DNA of 64,000 bases from Myxococcales bacterium (GTDB lineage: Bacteria; Myxococcota; UBA727; VGSZ01), in NCBI GenBank assembly GCA_023248635.1, contig JAHFED010000010.1:13275-77274 (forward strand), read 5' to 3'. Position 1 is the stretch's first letter. Every line of letters starts with the position of its first letter. Below the pieces are notes generated by a model, which was given only the letters and a program-made list of their open reading frames with translations, was not told the origin of the DNA and did not search any database. The position numbers and the translations under genes were made by a program. Shown here in pieces: positions 18,736 through 31,950 of the stretch.

Positions 18736-20238
18736 TCAATGCCGCGGCACGTCAAGGGTGTCGGAATCCCAGCGTGCTGGCGACAGCTGCGCGCCGAGCG
18801 CCTCCGGGCTCGACAAGACGGCGAGCACGGCCTCGCCCATCTCTTTGGCGCTGGGGTAGCGGTCGGCGGGGTGTTTGCGCAGACAGCGCAGCACGACCTC
18901 GTCGACGCCAGGTGGTAGGCCGGCGACGAAAAACGACGGCGCGGGAGCCGCCTTTTGCGCGTGGGCGAGCAGCATCGCGGTGAGGGAGTCCTCCAAGAAG
19001 GGCGGGCGCCCGGTCAGGCAGGCAAAGAGCACAGCCCCGAGGGCGTAGACGTCGGTGCGGGCGTCGACGTTTTCCCCCAGGGCTTGCTCCGGCGCCAGGA
19101 ACACCGGGGTGCCCAACACCGAGCCCGTCATCGTCAGCGTCGGCGCCGGCCCCAGGCCCTGCTGTTTGGCGATGCCGAAGTCGATGAGCTTGGCCTGCAC
19201 GCCGCCTTCGGGCCGGGCCACGAGCACGATGTTCTCGGGCTTGATGTCGCGGTGGATGATGCCGTGGGCGTGCACCTCATGCAGAGCGCCGGCGACCTGC
19301 GAGATGACGTCGCCAATCTCCAGAAGCGACAAACCACCCTCGGCCATGCGATCCTTGAGAGATCGACCCTGCAGGAGTTCCATGGTGTAGAAAATAAGAC
19401 CCTCATCGGTCATACCACAGTCGAAAATTTTGACGACGCCGGGATGGGTAATCGCAGTCAGCACCTCGATCTCGCGTTCGAAGCGCTGCAGCTCGGTCGG
19501 TCCGTTGTGGGTGGTGAGCTTCATCGCGACTTCGGTTTTCAACGTCGGGTGGAAGGCCTTCCACACCTCGCCCATCCCGCCCTGGCCAATCTTTTCGATC
19601 AGCCGATACCGCCCGATCAATTGGTTCTGGTGCACCTGGCGCCGCAGATTCCAGGTGGTGTCGCCGGCGATGAGCACCACGACCCAAGCAGCAAAATAGG
19701 CGACGACGTAGGAGACCGATTCTGCTCTCAAGAGCGGGTCGTCAAAGTCGGTGCGCAGCTCCGGCCGCACGACGTAGGACACCACCAGGAAGAGGGGAGG
19801 GAGCACCAGGGTCGGCGCTGTCCGCCAAAGGCCGCGCTGCCAGGGGCTGGGCAGCAGCAAGCCCTGAACGACCAAGACCAGGAAGGTCGAGGTGAAGGTC
19901 GGCGTGCGAAAGCCCTGGGCGATCAGTGCGTCCAAACCAAGCAGGCCACTGCCGCAGGAGAAGGCGATGATCTCCATGGCGGTGACGGCGCCGGGGGACA
20001 CTCCTTTTTTCAGCGCCGCCAAGAAAGCGAGCAAGAGCAGCGGCAGCGCCGCCCGCACCCCGAGCAACGCCGGCAACGACGCGCCTTGTTGGGCAGCCAC
20101 GAGGTCTACCGGCGTGAACAGGGGCCACAGGACGAGGCCGACGAAGAAACAACGCCGCAGACGAATGACGTTTTCCCGCTGGCCGCTCATCGTTGCGCCG
20201 TGAGAAAGCGAGCCCAGGATTTCGCCGCCGTGCATCAC
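18736..20238 (-). CDS. Ser/Thr protein kinase with a polytopic N-terminal membrane domain.
   Basis: About 230 N-terminal residues hold about 6 hydrophobic segments. A Hanks kinase follows (GQGGMGEVWKA, HRDIKPENIV, DFGIAK, GTPVFLAPE). Confidence 0.85.
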   Translation of the reverse strand: MMHGGEILGSLSHGATMSGQRENVIRLRRCFFVGLVLWPLFTPVDLVAAQQGASLPALLGVRAALPLLLLAFLAALKKGVSPGAVTAMEIIAFSCGSGLLGLDALIAQGFRTPTFTSTFLVLVVQGLLLPSPWQRGLWRTAPTLVLPPLFLVVSYVVRPELRTDFDDPLLRAESVSYVVAYFAAWVVVLIAGDTTWNLRRQVHQNQLIGRYRLIEKIGQGGMGEVWKAFHPTLKTEVAMKLTTHNGPTELQRFEREIEVLTAITHPGVVKIFDCGMTDEGLIFYTMELLQGRSLKDRMAEGGLSLLEIGDVISQVAGALHEVHAHGIIHRDIKPENIVLVARPEGGVQAKLIDFGIAKQQGLGPAPTLTMTGSVLGTPVFLAPEQALGENVDARTDVYALGAVLFACLTGRPPFLEDSLTAMLLAHAQKAAPAPSFFVAGLPPGVDEVVLRCLRKHPADRYPSAKEMGEAVLAVLSSPEALGAQLSPARWDSDTLDVPRH

Positions 20239-22175: not shown

Positions 22176-22293
22176 AGGGGGCCCCCTCGTCCCGCGATTC
22201 TGGGGACGAAGAGGCTAATGCACGCTCGACGCCAAGAGTGCTCCGGCAGTCGAAGGCCACGCGGCGGCGGTGATGCCTGCGGATGCGCAACCG

Positions 22294-22314
22294 TTGCGCA
22301 TGCTGCTCGCGCGG
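22294..22314. promoter_or_regulatory. Perfect 9-bp inverted repeat ATGCGCAAC-cg-GTTGCGCAT in the ~300-bp leader upstream of the NRPS gene; candidate operator for a dimeric regulator.
   Basis: gatgcgcaaccgttgcgcatgc is a seen palindrome. It lies within the region between 22176 and the likely NRPS start at 22474. Confidence 0.35.
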
Positions 22315-22473
22315 ATTGAGAAAGCGGGCGCTGCGGTGCACAGGGCGATGGCGACGGGCTCAAGGCGAGCGACACGTTGGGCGGGCCCCGTCCGCTTCAG
22401 CAGGGCCCCGCTCAGCGCACAGCGCTTCCGGCTTTGCGCCGTACCAGCGACGCGATGTGATAGCCAAGGCTGG

Positions 22474-25400
22474 ATGTCGTCGTCGTCGGTGCCGCCAAAG
22501 TCCTTTCCGCTCACTTCCGTCGAGCGGCGCTTTTGGATGCTCCACAACCTCCATCCCCATTCCCCCGTGGCCAACATCGGGCGTGTGGTCGAGCTGCGGG
22601 GCGAGCTCTATGTCGACGACCTCGCGCGGGCTTTTGCCATCGTTGCCCAAAACCCGGTGCTCCGAATGAGGGTGCGCGAGGAGCGCGGGGAACCACGGGG
22701 CGTGCTCGGCGATCCCCCCCGCCTGACCATCGACGCCGACGTCGCCGACGCCGACGCCGTCGCCCGCGCTGCCGACGAAATCGTCAAGGCTCCCTACGAT
22801 CTGGCGCGCGGGCCGTTGTGTCGCGCGCGCCTGCTGCGCACCGCCGACGACGAGCTCCATGTGTTGGTGCTCGGCGCCCACCATTTGATCCTCGATGGCT
22901 GGGGGCTGTCGCGCTCGCTGCCGCGGGCCATCGCGCGGGCCATGCGCGGCGAGAACATGAGCTTCGGCGACGAAGATGCTCTCGACGACGACACCTGGAT
23001 CGAGGCCCGCTTCGAGCGCGCGCCCGACGACCCCCCGGCAGACGCCCGCGCCATCGACGCCGCCTGGTGGAGCTCGGCACTGAAAGATGCCCAGCCCCTC
23101 ACCTTGCCTCTGGTGCGCCCGCCTCCGCCCCGGTCCACCGGCCGCGCCTGGGACGTCGAGGTCGCGGTTCCGCCGGGGATCTATGCCAAGGCCAAGGCGC
23201 TGGCGACGTCGATCGGTGCTCGCACCGTGCACGTGTTTCTGGCGGCCTTCGTCACCGAGCTCTCGCGCGCCGGTCGCATCCACGACGTGCTCTTGGGGAC
23301 CACGAGCGCGGCGCGGCCGGGCAGCGACCCCGACAACCACGAGATGGGCTGCTTCGTTCGCACCAAGGCCCTGCGCGTCGCCTTCGACGATCACGCGCCT
23401 TTCGTCGACGTCGTGCGGGCCTGCCAGACCGCCGTGCGCCAAAGCCTGGATCACCCCGCGTTCGACGCCGAAGAGCTGCAGCAGATCCAGGCGCCCGCCA
23501 TCGGCGCCCTGTTCAACTTCATCCCCTTCTCGGCCTTCGACGGCGTGTTGCCCGATCTCACGGTCAAGGCGGGGCGCATCATCGCCGGGGGCACCGCGTT
23601 TCCGATCTCCATGACCGTCGACGCCCACGGCGACCCCCGCCTCGTCGTCGAAGTCGACGCCGACCTCTTCGACGAGGGCTTCGCGCTGCGTTTTGCCGAG
23701 CGCATCAACGCCGTGCTGGCCGCGGGGGTCGCAAACCCGGCCCTGCCCTTCACGCGCCTGAGCCGACTCGGCCCCGTCGACGACGACGCGTGCGCCCAGA
23801 ACGCTCCCACCGCCCCTGAGATTGCCCCCGTGGTCGGTGGTGAGGTCACCGCCCTGCTCGAGCGTGATCTCGCCGGTGCTGAGCCGGCGCTGGTGCTCGT
23901 GCGGGATCCCCTCGATCCCGCCAGCGACGTCGCCGTCTCGCGGAAGGCACTGCTCGAGCGGGCCCAGGCCATCGCGGCGTCACTCGTCAAAGACCACGTC
24001 GACGGCGACGACGTTGCTTTCGTGGGGGTGCAGTGCCTCGATCCCCTGCGCACCGTCGAAGCGATCTTGGGCGTGCTCTTCGCCGGCTTTGCCTATGTCC
24101 CCATCGATCCGCGCGCGCCCCCCCTGCGTGCCGCCGCCATCGTCGAACAAGCGAAGGTGAGCACCGTCCTCGACGACGAAGCCGCCACGATCCGCGCCGC
24201 CATCCCCATCACGGCGGGTCGCAAGAGGCGGACGCCGCGGCCCTCCGATCCCGCCTATGCCATCTTCACCTCAGGCAGCACCGGCGCTCCCAAGGGCGTC
24301 GTCATCTCTCACGGCGCCCTGGTGTCGCAGCTGCAGGCCCGCGAGGGCCTCGGCTTTCCCCACGTCAAACGCTCCTGCTTGCTCGCTCCCTTCTTCTTCG
24401 ATGGCTCCATCGAGACGCTGTTTTGGACCCTGACCACCGGCGGCACCCTGCACCTGCTGGGAGAAGACGCGCGCCGCGATCCCCTCGCCATCCGGCGCAC
24501 CCTGGCCCGACGCCGCATCACCTACACCTCGGCGGTGCCCGCGCTGTGGGGCGCGATGTTGGATGCAGCGACGTCGACGGAGGAGTCCCTCGATGCCCTG
24601 GGCTTCGTCATCGTCGGCGGCGAAAAGCTCACGCCCCAGCTCATCGAAAAGCACAACACGCACACCTCGGCGCGGCTGGTGAACGAATACGGACCAACCG
24701 AAACGACGGTGTTTTCCACGGCGTGGACCGCGCCTTCGCCGGGCGAGCCCACACCCGAGCGCGTGCCCATCGGCCGCTCGGCCCCCCATGTGCGCTGCGC
24801 CGTCGTCGACGACAACCTGGAGCCCGTGCCCTGTCTCGAGGCCGGCGAGCTCGTCGTCAGCGGTGCGGGCTTGGCCGATGGGTACTTGAATGCGCCGGAG
24901 CAGACCGCGGCCGCCTTCGTCGTCCACCAAGGCGTGCGTCTGTACAAGACGGGCGATCTGGTGCGCCTGTGGCCTGACGGCGACCTCGAGTGGCTGGCGC
25001 GCAAAGACGAGCAGGTGAAGCTGCGCGGCGTTCGCGTCGAGCCAGGCGAAGTCGAAGCCGCCCTGCTGGCCGAGGGCTGCGACGAAGCCGCCGTCCTCGT
25101 CGACGGACAACATTTGTTGGCCTGGGTCTCACCAGCCTCCTGCGACGAAGCAGAGCTGATTGCGGCCCTCTTGCGGCGGCTGCCCGAGGCCATGGTCCCC
25201 GCGCGCATCATGGCCCTGGCGGTGTTGCCAAAGACCGCCAACGACAAAATCGACAAGCGCAACCTGCCAAAGATCGCCGTCGACGACGTCGTCACGCCCG
25301 CTGCCACCGCTCTCGAGCGCGCCATCGCTGCCATCTGGGAAGACGTGCTCGATCAAAGCCCGATCTCGGTGACCAAGAGCTTCTTTGCCTACGGTGGACA

Positions 25401-26370
25401 CTCCCTGAAGGCAGCCATCGTGGTGCGTCGTCTGAGCGATCACCTCGGCAAAGAGGTGCCGCTCTCGGCCCTGATGTTTGCCCGCACCGTGCGGGAGCTG
25501 GCCCGCAGCCTCGAGCAGCAGGCCCACAGCGGGTCGTCGTCGGCGTCGTCGCTGCTGCTCCCGTTGAGCGCTCGGGCCCAGAGCGCTCCTCGGGTGGTGT
25601 TCCTGCCGGGCATTGGGGGCCACGTCTTCACCTTCGCCGGCATCGCCGATCGCATGACCAACGTCGCCGCTGGCCTGCGCTCTTACGGGAGCGAGCCGGG
25701 GGAGGAGCCCCTGGCCTCGGTCGAAGAGCTGGCCAGCAAGAACCTCGATGAGCTCGACAAGGCTGGGGTCGCCGACGACGTCGTCTTCGCCGGCTACTCT
25801 TTCGGCGGCCTGGTCGCCTACGAGATGGCGTTGCAGCGGACTGCGCTGGGACGTCCTCCTCGTCATCTGGTCATTTTCGACACCTTGGCGCCGGGCTATC
25901 CAAAGAAGCTGCCCTTCTTCCAACGCGCCCGCCTGCACGCCGAGAGCTTGGTGCGCGCGGATTGGGAAGGACGGCGGGCCTACCTTCAGGGCCGCGTCGA
26001 CAGCGTGAAAGAGAAGCTCAACTTCAAGCTGCAGCGCGCCGAGGCCTTCAAGGACGCCTTCGCCCTCGATGACGAAGAGCTGCGGGCGCTAGGCCCTGTG
26101 CAGCGCGCCCAGCTCGAGAAGCTGGCGGGTACCTCGACCTTGGCCCACCACCGCTACTGGCCGCGGGCGTCGACGTCGGTGCCCATGACCCTTTTTGCGG
26201 CAGAGTCGGGTTTTGACTGGGCAGCCACCGTCATGGACGATCCCCTGCTCGGGTGGAGCGCCTGGGGCACGGGGTCGCTGCGGCGCGTGGTGCTCAAAGG
26301 CGACCACCTGCGCCTCTTCGTCGACGAGAACCTGCTCACGGCCGCACGCGGACTCGACGCCATCGCCTGA
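22474..26370 (+). CDS. Non-ribosomal peptide synthetase, single module C-A-T-TE.
   Basis: Condensation-domain motif HHLILDGWG. Adenylation cores A3 (AIFTSGSTGAPKGV), A7 (YKTGDL), A8 (ARKDEQVKLRGVRVEPGEVE) and A10 (KTANDKIDKR). PCP motif FFAYGGHSLKA. Thioesterase motif GYSFGG. The start is set where the C domain begins (MSSSSVPPKSFPLTSVERRFWML); the upstream in-frame ATG at 22270 is possible. Confidence 0.9.
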   Translation: MSSSSVPPKSFPLTSVERRFWMLHNLHPHSPVANIGRVVELRGELYVDDLARAFAIVAQNPVLRMRVREERGEPRGVLGDPPRLTIDADVADADAVARAADEIVKAPYDLARGPLCRARLLRTADDELHVLVLGAHHLILDGWGLSRSLPRAIARAMRGENMSFGDEDALDDDTWIEARFERAPDDPPADARAIDAAWWSSALKDAQPLTLPLVRPPPPRSTGRAWDVEVAVPPGIYAKAKALATSIGARTVHVFLAAFVTELSRAGRIHDVLLGTTSAARPGSDPDNHEMGCFVRTKALRVAFDDHAPFVDVVRACQTAVRQSLDHPAFDAEELQQIQAPAIGALFNFIPFSAFDGVLPDLTVKAGRIIAGGTAFPISMTVDAHGDPRLVVEVDADLFDEGFALRFAERINAVLAAGVANPALPFTRLSRLGPVDDDACAQNAPTAPEIAPVVGGEVTALLERDLAGAEPALVLVRDPLDPASDVAVSRKALLERAQAIAASLVKDHVDGDDVAFVGVQCLDPLRTVEAILGVLFAGFAYVPIDPRAPPLRAAAIVEQAKVSTVLDDEAATIRAAIPITAGRKRRTPRPSDPAYAIFTSGSTGAPKGVVISHGALVSQLQAREGLGFPHVKRSCLLAPFFFDGSIETLFWTLTTGGTLHLLGEDARRDPLAIRRTLARRRITYTSAVPALWGAMLDAATSTEESLDALGFVIVGGEKLTPQLIEKHNTHTSARLVNEYGPTETTVFSTAWTAPSPGEPTPERVPIGRSAPHVRCAVVDDNLEPVPCLEAGELVVSGAGLADGYLNAPEQTAAAFVVHQGVRLYKTGDLVRLWPDGDLEWLARKDEQVKLRGVRVEPGEVEAALLAEGCDEAAVLVDGQHLLAWVSPASCDEAELIAALLRRLPEAMVPARIMALAVLPKTANDKIDKRNLPKIAVDDVVTPAATALERAIAAIWEDVLDQSPISVTKSFFAYGGHSLKAAIVVRRLSDHLGKEVPLSALMFARTVRELARSLEQQAHSGSSSASSLLLPLSARAQSAPRVVFLPGIGGHVFTFAGIADRMTNVAAGLRSYGSEPGEEPLASVEELASKNLDELDKAGVADDVVFAGYSFGGLVAYEMALQRTALGRPPRHLVIFDTLAPGYPKKLPFFQRARLHAESLVRADWEGRRAYLQGRVDSVKEKLNFKLQRAEAFKDAFALDDEELRALGPVQRAQLEKLAGTSTLAHHRYWPRASTSVPMTLFAAESGFDWAATVMDDPLLGWSAWGTGSLRRVVLKGDHLRLFVDENLLTAARGLDAIA

Positions 26371-26389
26371 GGGCATTGGGTGCGGCGCG

Positions 26390-26628
26390 CTACTCGCCCT
26401 CGCCTTCGCCCTCGGCGGCGTCACAGGCGGCGTTGGCGTCGCCTTCGCAGGCTTCGTGCTCGGCCTCGCCCTCTGGGAAGTCCTCGCACTCGTCGCGGAT
26501 CTTCGCCACGCAGGTGGTGCGCGCGTCGCCCTCGCAGCCGGCGCAGTTCACGTTTCTTCTTCGACCGGCGCCGCAGGGCAGGCCGCCAGCACGAGGAGAC
26601 CGAACAGGGCCAGCACGCCGCGCACCAT
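26390..26628 (-). pseudogene. Small Cys-rich acidic lipoprotein gene with an apparent +1 frameshift between the signal peptide and the mature part (or a sequencing error in a gaagaagaaa run).
   Basis: ATG 26628 gives MVRGVLALFGLLVLAAC|PAAPVEEET* (lipobox LAAC, stop after 26 codons). The adjacent frame continues RRNVNCAGCEGDARTTCVAKIRDECEDFPEGEAEHEACEGDANAACDAAEGEGEGE* with excellent GC3 bias; it has 8 Cys in 55 aa. It sits 11 bp downstream of the kinase-FGE gene stop. Confidence 0.4.
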
Positions 26629-26639
26629 GAGCAACTCGA

Positions 26640-29600
26640 TCAGCGCGGGTTGGCGCAACAGCGGTAACCAAGGGTCGACGTCGTCGTCTTCGCCGACACC
26701 AGGTGGCGCGCCGAGCAACGCGACGCGAAATCAGGGTGATCGGCGGAGCCGCCCTTGGCGATTCTCTGGCCGCCGTGGGAGTCGGCGACCCATTCCTCGG
26801 CGTTGCCCGACATCATGTAGAGCTTGAAGCCAGACTTGCACTTCTTGAAATCGACGGGAGCAGCCAGGGGACGGGGTTTGCCGTCGCTGTCTTCGGTGTT
26901 GCAAGTGTCTGCGTCGTAGGTGTTGCCATAGGGGAAGCGCGACGACGACGGCCCCTTGCAGGCTCGCTCCCATTCTTGCTCGGTGCACAAGCGCCGACCC
27001 GCGCGCTCGCAGGCGTTCTTGGCGGCGGTCCACGAGACACCGGTCGTGGGCAGGGTGCTCTTGCCGTTGGGCGCCTCGTAGTGCTCGATGCAGAAGGCTT
27101 TGACCTCGACCGACGTCGCCTCGGCTTCTCCAAAATTGCGCATGGGATCGGACTGCGCGGAGCCGAAGGTGAAGGCGCCGGCTTCGATCTTGACGGTGCC
27201 GCCTGGGCATTCTCCCGACGACAAAGCGAGCTCGGGGGCCTTGGGATCCGGTGTCGGGCCTTTGGGATCCACTTTGGGATCGACTTTGGGATCGACCCTG
27301 GGATCGACCTTGGGATCGACTCTGGGATCGGGCGCCTTGACCAAGGCAGCCTCGCGTTCGCGCCGTTGCATTTCTTCGAGGGCGCGGGCTGCGGCGTCGC
27401 GCGTCTCTTTGGCGTCGTCGACGCGCGGCTGCACGGCCACCGTCCCCGCGTCGACCACAACGGCGACGGCGGGAACCGGGGCGGGCGGCTGCGGCACCAC
27501 CTCCCCCGGTTGCAGGGTCACGCCGGCAACGTCTTCGGCGTCTTCGCCGGATTGCTTCCACAGGTGGCGAAGAGCGAGCAGCAGCAGCAGCACAGCGAAG
27601 CCGACGCCGGCCGCGATCAGCACGGGGTTGGTGCCCTGCTTGGGCCGACGCGGTGGCGTGACCGGACGCAGGGGGACAAAAGGCTGCACCGCCATGACGT
27701 CGTCGTCGTCGCCGCCGCGTGCCCTGGGGCGTCGGGCGCTGGTCAAGGTCTCCTGCACGTCGTCGTCGTCGTTGCTGCGCCTGGGCAGTGCCGGCGGCAG
27801 CTCCTCGGCTTGTCCAGAGCCCGTGCCAGCGGTGCGGGTGAGCGCTTCGCGCAGGGCGACGTCGTCGACGTGGTCGGCCCGCGGATGGAGCTTGAGCGCC
27901 GTCAAGGCATCGTGAATGGCCAGGCCATCGTCGGAGCTCAGGGGCGGTGGCGGCATCGGCAGCGACGCGGGTGGTGGCTCTTCGGAGGTCAAACCGAGCA
28001 CCTCGGCGGCTCGGGGCCCCGCCCCCGCCAGCTCGGCGGTCTCTTCGAGGGAGTCCTCGCTCGACATCGCGGGGGCGTGGGGGCGCGCGACCGCTCGCGG
28101 TGGCGTCGGGAGCCCGGGGTTGTCGCTGGGGGCCGCCGCCGGAGCGCGCGGAGGGTTCGGGTTGGGGCTCAGGCTCCCCGCCGCGATCTGTCGGTTCTCG
28201 ACGGTGTCGTCGTCCCCAGGCAAGGGGAAATGCGAGCGCTCGAGGGGATCGCCTTCGTCGTCGGGCAGCGGCGGCGGGATCAGGTTGTCGTCGACCTCCT
28301 TGGAGTAGAGGGCTTCGAGCAGGGCGTCGCCGCCGGGGGGCCGGGCACCGGAATAGACCAGCCCGGGGCGCTCGCCCTGCATCGGCCGGCCGCCGGGGCT
28401 GGTGTCGACGTCGTCTTCGCCAGAGGCACGGGTGGTTGGATCGTCGGCGGTGTCGTCGGGGTTGAGGCCGCTGACCGACATCAAGCGCCGCGCCGCCAAC
28501 TCCATGTCGGTCTCGGCAGGCGCGGGCGGGCTCGGACGCTTGGTCTGCATCACCGCGCTCTCGAGCAGCATGACCTGGCTCTGCCCAATCTCGAGCAGCG
28601 AGGGATCCTCTTCCTCCGACGACGCCGACAACGGCGGTGCCAGGGCTTGCGCGTTGGTCTGCTGGGGCGGTGGCCCGGGATGGGGAAATGCAGCTGCGAC
28701 GACGACGACCCCTGCTTCTCTGCCCTCGAGTCGCGCCCCGGCCACCGGCTCCACCAGCAGGGCGCCTGGTGGCAGGGGAGAGGACGCCTTCGCGGCCGGC
28801 GTGGGCTTGCCGAGGCTTGGTGGCTCCTTGGTCGCGGCGGGGGGCGGCAGCGGCTGTCCGCCAAGGGCAGCGAGGGCTCCTTCGACCTCCTTGGCCAGGT
28901 CGCCGGCTTTGGTGAAGCGCCCATCGGGGTGCTCGGCGACGGCGCGTCGAATCAAGCCGTCGAGGCGGGTGGGGAGCTGCTCGAGGGCCGCGGTGAAGGC
29001 GCGGGAGAAGTGTCCTTCGAAAACGATGCCCGTCAGCATCTCGGCGAAGATCACCCCCAGCGAGTAGACGTCGACGCGGCCGTCGATGGTCTGTGCTTCC
29101 ACGCGCAACTCGGGGGCGATGTAGGGAAAGGCCTTGCTCCTGCTCTTGGCGATGCCCAGGAAGGGCTTGAGCGGCAGGCCTTTGACGAGGCTGAAGTCCG
29201 TGACCTTGAGCAGGTCAGGCAGGACGACGACGTTTTCTGGCTTGAGGTCGCCGTGCCAGGTCTGTTTGTGGGCGTAGTCGAGAGCAGCACCCAGCTGCTG
29301 GAAGATCGGCGCGAGCTCTTCGGGCGAGAAAGCCTGGCCCTTGTCGTGCCGGAGCCGAATGATCTTCCGCAGCGTGAGCCCCTCGAGGAGCTTCATGGTG
29401 AAGAAGCGGCGGTTGGGCTGCAGGTGCTGCCCTTCGTCGTAGATGCGGACGATGTTGGGATGCTGCAGCTTGCGCGCGGATTTAATGGCCTTGGCGAACT
29501 GCTTTTGCTCTTCGTCGGTCTGCAGCAGGTTGGGCGAGATGCCCTTGAGGGCAATGTCGACGTCGATCTCGGTGTCGCGGGCGCGGTAGACGGCGCCGAC

Positions 29601-29804
29601 CCCGCCCTGGCCGATGAGGTCGAGGACGCGATAGCGGCCCGCGATCAGCTCTCCCGGCGAAAAGATCAGCGCCTGCTGCTGCCCCGTCGTCGGCCGCTTC
29701 TGCGGTCCGATGTTCTTGCCGGCCTTGTCGACGAGCTCTTGCCCGCAGACCGTGCACTTCTGTGCTTCATCGGAGTTGTAGGAGCCGCAGCGGAAGCAAA
29801 GCAT
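26640..29804 (-). CDS. Receptor-like Ser/Thr (pseudo)kinase: Zn-ribbon, then a Hanks kinase with altered catalytic motifs, a Pro-rich linker, one TM helix, a (VDPK)n repeat and an FGE-sulfatase (SUMF1-like) domain.
   Basis: MLCFRCGSYNSDEAQKCTVCG ribbon. Kinase motifs GQGGVGAVYRA and IALKGI, but HGDLKPENV (HRD changed to HGD) and VTDFSLV (DFG changed to DFS). TM helix NPVLIAAGVGFAVLLLLLALRHLW. DPRVDPKVDPRVDPKVDPKVDPKG encoded by 12-bp DNA tandem repeats. C-terminal FGE motifs (GNAEEWV, LGYRCCANPR). Confidence 0.8.
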   Translation of the reverse strand: MLCFRCGSYNSDEAQKCTVCGQELVDKAGKNIGPQKRPTTGQQQALIFSPGELIAGRYRVLDLIGQGGVGAVYRARDTEIDVDIALKGISPNLLQTDEEQKQFAKAIKSARKLQHPNIVRIYDEGQHLQPNRRFFTMKLLEGLTLRKIIRLRHDKGQAFSPEELAPIFQQLGAALDYAHKQTWHGDLKPENVVVLPDLLKVTDFSLVKGLPLKPFLGIAKSRSKAFPYIAPELRVEAQTIDGRVDVYSLGVIFAEMLTGIVFEGHFSRAFTAALEQLPTRLDGLIRRAVAEHPDGRFTKAGDLAKEVEGALAALGGQPLPPPAATKEPPSLGKPTPAAKASSPLPPGALLVEPVAGARLEGREAGVVVVAAAFPHPGPPPQQTNAQALAPPLSASSEEEDPSLLEIGQSQVMLLESAVMQTKRPSPPAPAETDMELAARRLMSVSGLNPDDTADDPTTRASGEDDVDTSPGGRPMQGERPGLVYSGARPPGGDALLEALYSKEVDDNLIPPPLPDDEGDPLERSHFPLPGDDDTVENRQIAAGSLSPNPNPPRAPAAAPSDNPGLPTPPRAVARPHAPAMSSEDSLEETAELAGAGPRAAEVLGLTSEEPPPASLPMPPPPLSSDDGLAIHDALTALKLHPRADHVDDVALREALTRTAGTGSGQAEELPPALPRRSNDDDDVQETLTSARRPRARGGDDDDVMAVQPFVPLRPVTPPRRPKQGTNPVLIAAGVGFAVLLLLLALRHLWKQSGEDAEDVAGVTLQPGEVVPQPPAPVPAVAVVVDAGTVAVQPRVDDAKETRDAAARALEEMQRREREAALVKAPDPRVDPKVDPRVDPKVDPKVDPKGPTPDPKAPELALSSGECPGGTVKIEAGAFTFGSAQSDPMRNFGEAEATSVEVKAFCIEHYEAPNGKSTLPTTGVSWTAAKNACERAGRRLCTEQEWERACKGPSSSRFPYGNTYDADTCNTEDSDGKPRPLAAPVDFKKCKSGFKLYMMSGNAEEWVADSHGGQRIAKGGSADHPDFASRCSARHLVSAKTTTSTLGYRCCANPR
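27262..27330. repeat. Six tandem 12-bp repeats (ttgggatcgacy) inside the kinase-FGE gene, encoding the (VDPK/R)n periplasmic linker.
   Basis: tttgggatccactttgggatcgactttgggatcgaccctgggatcgaccttgggatcgactctgggatcg. Confidence 0.8.
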
Positions 29805-30075
29805 TGACGTCGACGACCCGCGTTGGAGGTGGGGCTGCCATAGCTCAACGATCTGCGATGACAAACGGCCTGTGGCGCACGCCGCGCGCTTTCTTTCGCA
29901 TCAGGATGCGCTTCGCGCAGCTCCTCCGGCCCGGCCTCGGCCCAGATGGGCAGCCCCGGATGGGTTGACAGAAGGTGAGGTCTGTAAACTCGCACGCAGC
30001 GCGCGGACGTCGTGAGCCTTCACGTTCTGCTGTCCAGACGCTGGCGCGTCGCGAAACGTCAGCTGCGGGCCACCG

Positions 30076-31950
30076 TCATTCGGCGGGGCCTTCAGCCAGC
30101 TTCTTGGCGCGCGCATACATGGGGCTGAACTGCTTTCGGTAGACGGCGTCGATGGAGATCAACTTCTCGAAGCAGTCGCGGGCGGTCACCCAGTCTTTGC
30201 TCTGCATCGAGAGCATGGCGAGGCGAATGAGCGCAGGCGGCGCCGTCGGATCGGCAGCGATGGCCTCTTCGAGCGCCTTGCGGGCCTCGACGGGATGGTT
30301 TTCGGCGATGGCGCGGTCGGCGCGTCCGACGGCGGCGTCTCGAGCGAGGGGATCGACCGGCGTGTCGCCGGCCAGAGCCTTTTGCAAGGCGCTGCGATCC
30401 ACTGGGTCCACCGGCGGCGGCACGGGCGCGGCCGCGGGGGCACCGATGACAGCGCCCGAGGTGGCGGGCTGGGCGAGCAGTTTGCCCTGCACGACGAGCA
30501 TGGCGACAAAGACGAAGCCGCCGAGCAACAACAGACCGCCGACGACGACGACGATGGCGGCGACGCTGATGCGGTTGGGAGGTCGTTCGACCTCGACGAT
30601 CTCGGGCTTGCCGGGTCCCGGATTCGTGGTTTGGCGCACCGCCTCGAGTGTCACCACGCGCGCGGCTTTGGGTGCTCCAGCAGGGATCGGAGGCGGCGCG
30701 GCATCGCTCACAGGCGGAGGCTGCAACGGCGGCGGCGGCGGCGCGAGGGGCTGCCTCAGGGCGGGCGCTGGCTGGAGCGGAAGGGCAGCGGGGTTTGACG
30801 AAGCAGGAGCGGCGAAGGCCGGCGCCGGTGGGGCGATCATCAGCGAGGAGGGCGATCCGAAGCGGGTCATCACCGCTTCGGTCGGGGGCGAGATCGACAT
30901 CGACGCCGCCGGCAGGGGCACGGTGTCGTTGCGCATCATGGGGGGGAGGGGGGCAAAGGCCGCCGGCAGCTTGTCGAGGGTCGGCGGCGGCGCCCCCCCG
31001 TCGGCGCCGAGCCCCGGGCGCGCGCGCTGCGGCAGATCCACCACGACGCCATCGGCGAAGGGAGCCAGCGCGTTGGCGAAGCTGGCGGCGTCGGGCCAGC
31101 GCTCCTCTTTGTTCTTGGCCATGCCCCGGCGCAAGACAGACTCGAAGCCGGGAGGCATGAAAACACCCGGGCGCTCCGTCGACGGCGCCTCCTCGGAAAA
31201 GACCTTGAGCAAGGTGTCTCTGACGCTGGTGCCGCGAAAAGGCGAGCGGCCGAGCAGCATGTGCCACAGCACCACGGCGCCCGAGTAGATGTCGCTTCTG
31301 GCGTCGAGGGGATCGCCCCGCGCCTGCTCCGGCGACATGTATTCGGGCGTCCCAAAGATGGTGCCAGGGATGGTCAGGGCCTGCTGGTCGGCGGCGTCGT
31401 TGGTGGTGATCTTGGCGATGCCGAAGTCGACGACCTTCACCATGTCGGGTCGCCCGATCTTCTGGGCCAGCATCACGTTTTGCGGTTTGAGATCGCGGTG
31501 CAGCACGCCGCCGACGTGGGCTGCGTCGAGGGCTTTGAAGAGCTGGATGCCGATGCGCGCGACGCGGGCCGCGGGCATGGCCCCACACGCGCGCAGCTCG
31601 TCGGCCAACCCGCGGCCAGCGACCAGCTCCATGGCGATGTAGAAAGTGCCGTCGCCGTCTTCGCCGAAGTCGTCGACGCTGACGCAGTTTTCGTGTTCCA
31701 GCCGCGAGGCGGCCATGGCTTCGCGGCGGAACCGCGCCACGAGCTTGAGGTCCTTGGAGAGGTGCCCCGCCAGCAGCTTGATCGCGACGCGTTTCTCGGT
31801 GGTGAGATGGGCGGCCTCGTACACCGAACCCATGCCGCCGGTGCCCAGCACGCGCACGATGCGGTAGCGGCCGGCCAGCACCGTGCCGATGCGGTCATCG
31901 ACCTTGTCGCCCTTTGGGGCCGGCGGCGCTTGGCTCACGTCGACGACCAT
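30076..31950 (-). CDS. Ser/Thr protein kinase with a single TM helix and a C-terminal TPR-like periplasmic domain.
   Basis: LGTGGMGSVYEA, HRDLKPQNVML, DFGIAK and GTPEYMSPE. A Pro/Ala-rich linker, then TM VAAIVVVVGGLLLLGGFVFVAMLVV, then a C-terminal helical repeat region. Confidence 0.9.
   Translation of the reverse strand: MVVDVSQAPPAPKGDKVDDRIGTVLAGRYRIVRVLGTGGMGSVYEAAHLTTEKRVAIKLLAGHLSKDLKLVARFRREAMAASRLEHENCVSVDDFGEDGDGTFYIAMELVAGRGLADELRACGAMPAARVARIGIQLFKALDAAHVGGVLHRDLKPQNVMLAQKIGRPDMVKVVDFGIAKITTNDAADQQALTIPGTIFGTPEYMSPEQARGDPLDARSDIYSGAVVLWHMLLGRSPFRGTSVRDTLLKVFSEEAPSTERPGVFMPPGFESVLRRGMAKNKEERWPDAASFANALAPFADGVVVDLPQRARPGLGADGGAPPPTLDKLPAAFAPLPPMMRNDTVPLPAASMSISPPTEAVMTRFGSPSSLMIAPPAPAFAAPASSNPAALPLQPAPALRQPLAPPPPPLQPPPVSDAAPPPIPAGAPKAARVVTLEAVRQTTNPGPGKPEIVEVERPPNRISVAAIVVVVGGLLLLGGFVFVAMLVVQGKLLAQPATSGAVIGAPAAAPVPPPVDPVDRSALQKALAGDTPVDPLARDAAVGRADRAIAENHPVEARKALEEAIAADPTAPPALIRLAMLSMQSKDWVTARDCFEKLISIDAVYRKQFSPMYARAKKLAEGPAE

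Follow-up and report, generated by a model that had tools for sequence, protein, structure and literature searches.

A probable young pseudogene of a rare Cys-rich lipoprotein family behind a receptor kinase gene in a Myxococcales bacterium

Organization of the locus

The locus was analysed within a window of 64,000 nucleotides (the whole stretch of DNA studied here), taken from contig JAHFED010000010.1 of a Myxococcales bacterium. On its minus strand, the gene of a receptor kinase with an FGE-like domain is followed at a short distance by two small pieces of reading frame, which in turn face a convergent NRPS gene on the plus strand. The features are given here by their positions in the window.

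22270–26370, plus strand: convergent single-module NRPS gene (C-A-T-TE; Pfam Condensation, AMP-binding, PP-binding and Thioesterase)
26390–26551, minus strand: 3' half of the small gene, in the -1 frame, with the acidic 6-Cys domain (stop TAG at 26392–26390)
26548–26550, minus strand: premature TGA that closes the signal-peptide ORF and overlaps GTG 26551–26549 as GTGA
26553–26555, minus strand: frameshift site, an AAA run right after GAAGAAGAA, placed with the table of per-codon log-odds
26551–26628, minus strand: 5' half of the small gene, 26 codons by translation, starting with ATG at 26628–26626
within 26551–26628, minus strand: predicted type II (lipoprotein) signal peptide MVRGVLALFGLLVLAAC, then PAAPVEEE(T)
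26578–26589, minus strand: lipobox L-A-A-C (26589–26578), with the predicted lipidated Cys17 at 26580–26578
26629–26639, minus strand: spacer of 11 nt between the kinase stop and the ATG of the small gene, read from the sequence
26640–29864, minus strand: kinase/FGE-like receptor gene from the ORF list, 1074 aa (stop TGA at 26642–26640)

The initial annotation had proposed that an ATG 11 nt past the receptor stop opens a lipoprotein signal peptide and that this frame ends after 26 codons, and we find both statements to be correct: the translation from ATG 26628 is MVRGVLALFGLLVLAACPAAPVEEET, contains an LAAC lipobox and runs into the TGA at 26550–26548. The downstream piece had been described as a peptide of 55 residues with eight Cys in the +1 frame. 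In fact it lies in the -1 (equivalent to the +2) frame relative to the ATG, is 54 codons long if counted from the first Asn in frame and 53 if counted from the GTG at 26551, and contains six Cys. Its translation, ...NVNCAGCEGDARTTCVAKIRDECEDFPEGEAEHEACEGDANAACDAAEGEGEGE, ends at the TAG at 26392–26390, and its Cys are spaced as C-x2-C-x7-C-x7-C-x12-C-x7-C, with 17 acidic and 3 basic amino acids among 52 residues and a GEGEGE tail. Together with the lipobox Cys, a protein with both pieces in one frame would have seven Cys. The stop of the small gene is separated by 19 nt from the stop of the convergent NRPS gene, with no recognisable terminator in between. A scan of 25900–27100, which includes the 11-nt spacer, likewise returned no terminator, and a promoter scan was also empty. 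As a candidate gene for the same region we considered a 93-aa ORF starting with TTG (26390–26671, in the -1 frame) and rejected it, given that its upstream part overlaps the kinase gene, uses the rare codons CGA and AGA and encodes no signal peptide.

Coding potential and the frameshift junction

Because the window, at 67.6% G+C, is full of spurious open frames, we used a codon log-odds score for which 24 of its long genes served as training set. By this score the part of 26 codons reached +14.7, compared with 13.8 ± 7.9 for real genes at that size, and the 53-codon part scored +33.0, compared with 27.9 ± 13 for real genes and with a 95th percentile of 22.8 for the most gene-like non-coding frame in the 53-codon comparison. 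Each half is gene-like in its own frame and, when that frame is followed across the junction, scores as non-coding.

The switch had been assigned to a gaagaagaaa run, and this is where it is found. GAAGAAGAAA occupies 26562–26553 on the minus strand and the junction reads GTC GAA GAA GAA ACG TGA. In the ATG frame the run of good codons ends with GAA (26556–26554), and in the -1 frame it begins with AAC (26554–26552), with A26554 common to both. Upstream of the junction the -1 frame consists of the rare codons CGA AGA AGA (about -3 each), and downstream of it the ATG frame has poor codon scores. A switch at a single shared A is just what the loss of one nucleotide from an A run leaves behind (AAAA to AAA, 26553–26555). 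Indeed, one added A repairs the frame, which then reads ...EEENVNCAGC... (PVEEENVNCAGC) and gives a protein of 79 aa. The rest of the 79 codons contain no other stop or indel and keep every conserved residue.

To the repaired ORF, for which a signal-peptide check had been suggested, and to its homologues (see below) we applied a lipobox rule in the style of PROSITE PS51257, namely a Lys or Arg among the first 7 residues, a hydrophobic stretch free of charged residues, and [LVI][ASTVI][GAS]C with the Cys at 15–35. The protein of the window passes it with Cys17, and its two homologues P0002 and P0004 pass it with Cys15 and Cys17, respectively. Of the 1266 ATGs in the window no more than 10 satisfy this rule, most of the 10 without a hydrophobic core.

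A rare family of small lipoproteins

A word-indexed search with the repaired protein matched only P0001, which is the 53-aa GTG-start ORF itself, identical in sequence and present as a gene call in the NCBI, Logan and ENA records. When 1.84 billion representatives were scanned exhaustively with HMMER, P0002 was found, a protein of 74 aa that matches query residues 5–79 in a single frame (E 2e-11, 58% identity). P0004 (78 aa, E 1e-20) came from a subsequent profile search, and a third profile iteration gave no further members. Each of the two proteins is encoded without interruption on a short metagenome contig (L015 for P0002, L016 for P0004). A third candidate, the 3828-aa cadherin-like repeat protein P0003 (E 1e-6), was discarded, its match to the acidic tail being one of composition, and tblastn found no paralogue of the small gene in the window or in any of the fetched loci. 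Among about 5.8 billion protein clusters the family thus has three members, the window copy, P0002 and P0004, all of them from metagenomes.

In the alignment of the three sequences 31 columns are invariant, including all seven Cys, the lipobox Cys-Pro, R-D, P-E-G, E-H-E and the GEGEGE C-terminus. All three have an SPII signal peptide, and the Cys pattern of the family is C-x2-C-x7/8-C-x7-C-x12-C-x7-C. Pairwise dN/dS for the mature part is 0.45–0.66, a noisy estimate from three short sequences; since these values lie just moderately below 1, it is chiefly the pattern of invariant Cys and motifs that shows selection. In the window the GEGEGE tail is encoded by 3.7 tandem copies of a 6-nt unit (CTCGCC on the plus strand, 26393–26414), and P0004 has one extra GE unit, which indicates that the length of the tail varies within the family by repeat slippage.

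Pfam and NCBIfam searches gave nothing meaningful for the repaired protein or its homologues, and a search of PDB sequences with the family profile returned only an insignificant match of the signal peptide to 2yp6. This family of small, acidic 6-Cys lipoproteins is previously undescribed and extremely rare. Given that P0002 and P0004 carry the signal peptide, the lipobox and the 6-Cys acidic domain in one frame, the family is real and it is the window copy that is frameshifted. The sequence comparison therefore supports the view that the two pieces in the window are parts of a single lipoprotein gene, which in its ancestral state encoded about 79 aa. The window copy resembles the bacterial type II lipoproteins of the Lgt/LspA/Lnt pathway in its basic n-region (Arg3), its hydrophobic core of 11 residues, LAAC and Cys17, and both intact homologues share the same architecture. 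It differs from them in that its mature domain is out of frame, the export signal being uncoupled from its cargo, and in that this domain matches no described lipoprotein family. Only nine residues follow Cys17 in the window ORF before the TGA, whereas in P0002 and P0004 a mature polypeptide continues in the same frame after the lipobox Cys.

Predicted structure of the intact protein

AlphaFold models of the full-length protein, made with only three sequences in the alignment, have two helices (residues 35–48 and 56–73, core pLDDT 70–83), and models of mature P0002, also with only three sequences, have corresponding helices at 15–29 and 37–54 (mean pLDDT 74, core 80–91). In these models one helix bears C40 and C48, the other bears C61 and C69, and the invariant P-E-G lies in the turn. 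The positions of the four Cys are mirror-symmetric (40 + 69 = 48 + 61), which suggests two disulfides between the helices. We infer from the models that the mature domain may form an alpha-helical hairpin stapled by disulfides C40–C69 and C48–C61, and judging by the signal peptide it would be lipid-anchored in the cell envelope. The N-terminal CxxC pair could make a third disulfide or have a metal or redox role.

A two-disulfide helical hairpin, as predicted here, is also the fold of the CHCH or twin-CxnC proteins of the mitochondrial intermembrane space (Cox17-type) and of the plant alpha-hairpinins (e.g. VBP-8, Luffin P1). The Cys motifs of the two helices are Cx7C and Cx7C, a spacing that is not the canonical 9 or 3 of CHCH proteins, and fold searches were non-specific. 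Furthermore, no member of the family gave a Pfam match, to the CHCH profile or otherwise, at E ≤ 0.1 to 1, and a literature search for bacterial twin-CxnC lipoproteins gave nothing useful. It is tempting to speculate that the family could be a lipid-anchored bacterial analogue of Cox17-type proteins, in which Cu(I) or another thiophilic metal is bound by the CxxC together with the invariant His, or these residues act in redox relay, the window copy being a recently lost or split allele, but we regard this as a long shot.

The adjacent receptor kinase

The gene upstream encodes a Ser/Thr receptor kinase in which an N-terminal zinc ribbon and a kinase domain (Pfam Pkinase, 4e-32) are followed by a long linker of low complexity, a TM segment and, at the C-terminus, an FGE-sulfatase-like domain (Pfam FGE-sulfatase, 8e-21). 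An exact look-up of the 1074-aa kinase gave no record, the public call being 1054 aa. Its C-terminus, ...TLGYRCCANPR followed by the stop, coincides with the ends of its orthologues. The 3' end of the receptor gene is present at seven orthologous loci (L001, L002 and L010–L014), where the FGE-like domain, with its end in ...LGYRCCA, is strongly conserved at 63–75% (L001 and L002) or 70–72% (L010–L014) identity.

The initial annotation had cast the small protein as a possible metal or redox partner of this receptor, FGE being a copper enzyme, and had suggested looking for the same gene behind related kinases. At none of the seven loci is the receptor gene followed by a small lipoprotein gene or a Cys-rich ORF; what lies downstream is a VIT1-like gene, convergent cNMP-binding genes, a glutamate-dehydrogenase-like gene or unrelated sequence. 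Conversely, the gene upstream of P0002 is unrelated to the receptor, and the neighbour of P0004 is a divergent lipoprotein-like ORF, the start of which (L016 3–122, minus strand; MRSSIVLAVVVLAPALALMMSGCPNNECPEDE...) is Cys-containing and acidic past the lipobox on this short contig.

The receptor domain itself is similar in fold to the formylglycine-generating enzyme, as judged by the Pfam match and by a match to human FGE at 8e-14. However, in the phmmer alignment with the human FGE mutants 2aft and 2afy, the positions of Cys336 and Cys341, the catalytic copper-binding residues of the human enzyme, are taken in the receptor by Asp and Ala, respectively. Without both catalytic Cys the domain (26640–27260, minus strand) looks like a non-catalytic extracytoplasmic sensor module, and the rationale for a copper-delivering partner is removed. 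With the gene missing at seven loci, its homologues in other contexts and no catalytic Cys in the receptor, the idea of a copper or FGE partner is left without support, as is any functional tie of the small gene to the FGE-like kinase.

Origin of the split gene

The window contains a frameshifted copy of a real but very rare lipoprotein gene, and we consider that a recent inactivating mutation most likely made it a young pseudogene. The ancestral product had a Sec/SPII signal peptide with the lipobox LAAC, followed by a mature domain of 62 residues with six conserved Cys, an invariant His and the GEGEGE tail. The loss of one base from the A run just past the lipobox region (AAAA to AAA, 26553–26555) would have left translation from the ATG to stop after 26 codons and the Cys-rich domain stranded in the -1 frame without an export signal, with at most a signal-less remnant of 53 aa made by re-initiation at the overlapping GTGA. 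The gene is otherwise pristine, so that the lesion, if real, is recent, and its place 11 nt behind the receptor kinase is an accident of gene order in this lineage rather than a functional pairing kept by evolution. Of the three options given in the initial annotation, recent pseudogenization therefore fits best; an indel error is less likely and a slippery-site frameshift lacks support.

A sequencing or consensus indel would mean that the organism has AAAA and an intact gene for 79 aa, the deposited sequence being one A short, and a lesion of a single base in a short homopolymer within an otherwise undamaged gene is what such an error would look like. The junction is, however, the same in three assemblies: Logan contig L008 (11,051 bp), assembled from SRR14366783, and ENA contig L009 (1,191 bp), a MEGAHIT product to judge by its k141 name, match the window at 100% identity from end to end, the junction included, and agree exactly with the NCBI record at this site. 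The same sequence in two other short-read assemblies makes an assembler-specific error unlikely and suggests that short reads back it, and indels in the consensus of short reads are rare in a run of 3 nt. On the other hand, assemblies that are 100% identical throughout are not independent biological samples and may share libraries, and three assemblies identical over 11 kb may come from one library with one common error. On balance we find an error of this kind rather unlikely. Chance open frames, in turn, are common on all strands of DNA with a high G+C content such as this stretch between convergent genes, and three plus-strand ORFs (95, 125 and 210 aa) do overlap the region. But the codon scores are gene-like in the two proposed frames only, the lipobox is canonical and the two homologues conserve every Cys, so that we can regard the reading of both pieces as spurious ORFs as refuted and next to impossible.

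The split could also be functional, the gene being used for two products, a 26-aa lipopeptide precursor and a cytoplasmic, acidic Cys-rich protein of 53 aa made by re-initiation. TGA 26550–26548 and GTG 26551–26549 do form a GTGA stop/start overlap, an arrangement typical of translational coupling, and the 53-aa ORF has good codon usage and is predicted by gene callers (P0001). A recent lesion explains the codon bias equally well, however, and there is no clear Shine-Dalgarno sequence ahead of the GTG. Moreover, in both homologues the signal peptide belongs to the same single ORF as the domain, and a six-Cys domain built for an oxidizing envelope is unlikely to function in the cytoplasm, which makes the use of two products improbable. 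Even less credible is that the frames are joined into one lipoprotein at GAAGAAGAAA, be it by programmed -1 ribosomal frameshifting or by slippage during transcription. As in known programmed -1 frameshift genes (dnaX, IS3-family transposases), the frames overlap with an offset of -1 and a stop follows soon after the junction, which lies in a purine-rich repeat. In contrast to these genes, the site has no slippery X XXY YYZ heptamer, and the re-pairing of GAA to AGA and of ACG to AAC would be poor. The RNA around and downstream of it is no more stable than shuffled sequences (z = 0.13, 0.54 and 2.0) and has no Rfam match as a stimulatory structure, an A run of 3 nt is too short for transcriptional slippage, and the shift is not conserved, P0002 and P0004 each being encoded in one frame. 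We therefore favour a recent inactivating mutation over any form of recoding.

On a practical matter, public calls at this locus give only a 53-aa GTG-start ‘hypothetical protein’, which hides its origin as the signal-less remnant of a lipoprotein gene. The finding is thus one at the level of annotation, which reveals no new mechanism, recoding event or partner of the FGE-like receptor kinase, while the predicted disulfide-stapled hairpin may be of minor interest for metal or redox biology of the envelope.

Genomic surroundings

The convergent NRPS gene, which stands alone, is absent from the orthologous kinase loci, so that this side of the locus is lineage-specific. Within the kinase gene, just upstream of the FGE-like domain (27260–27330), a 12-nt unit repeated 5.9 times in tandem encodes the peptide repeat (V/P)DPK/(V)DPR, which resembles a VDPPK repeat in the orthologue at L001. 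The receptor has its closest relatives in Myxococcota MAGs. Two more Ser/Thr protein kinase genes flank the locus (18736–20238 and 30076–31950, both on the minus strand, the latter with TPR repeats), a kinase-rich neighbourhood that is typical of Myxococcota.
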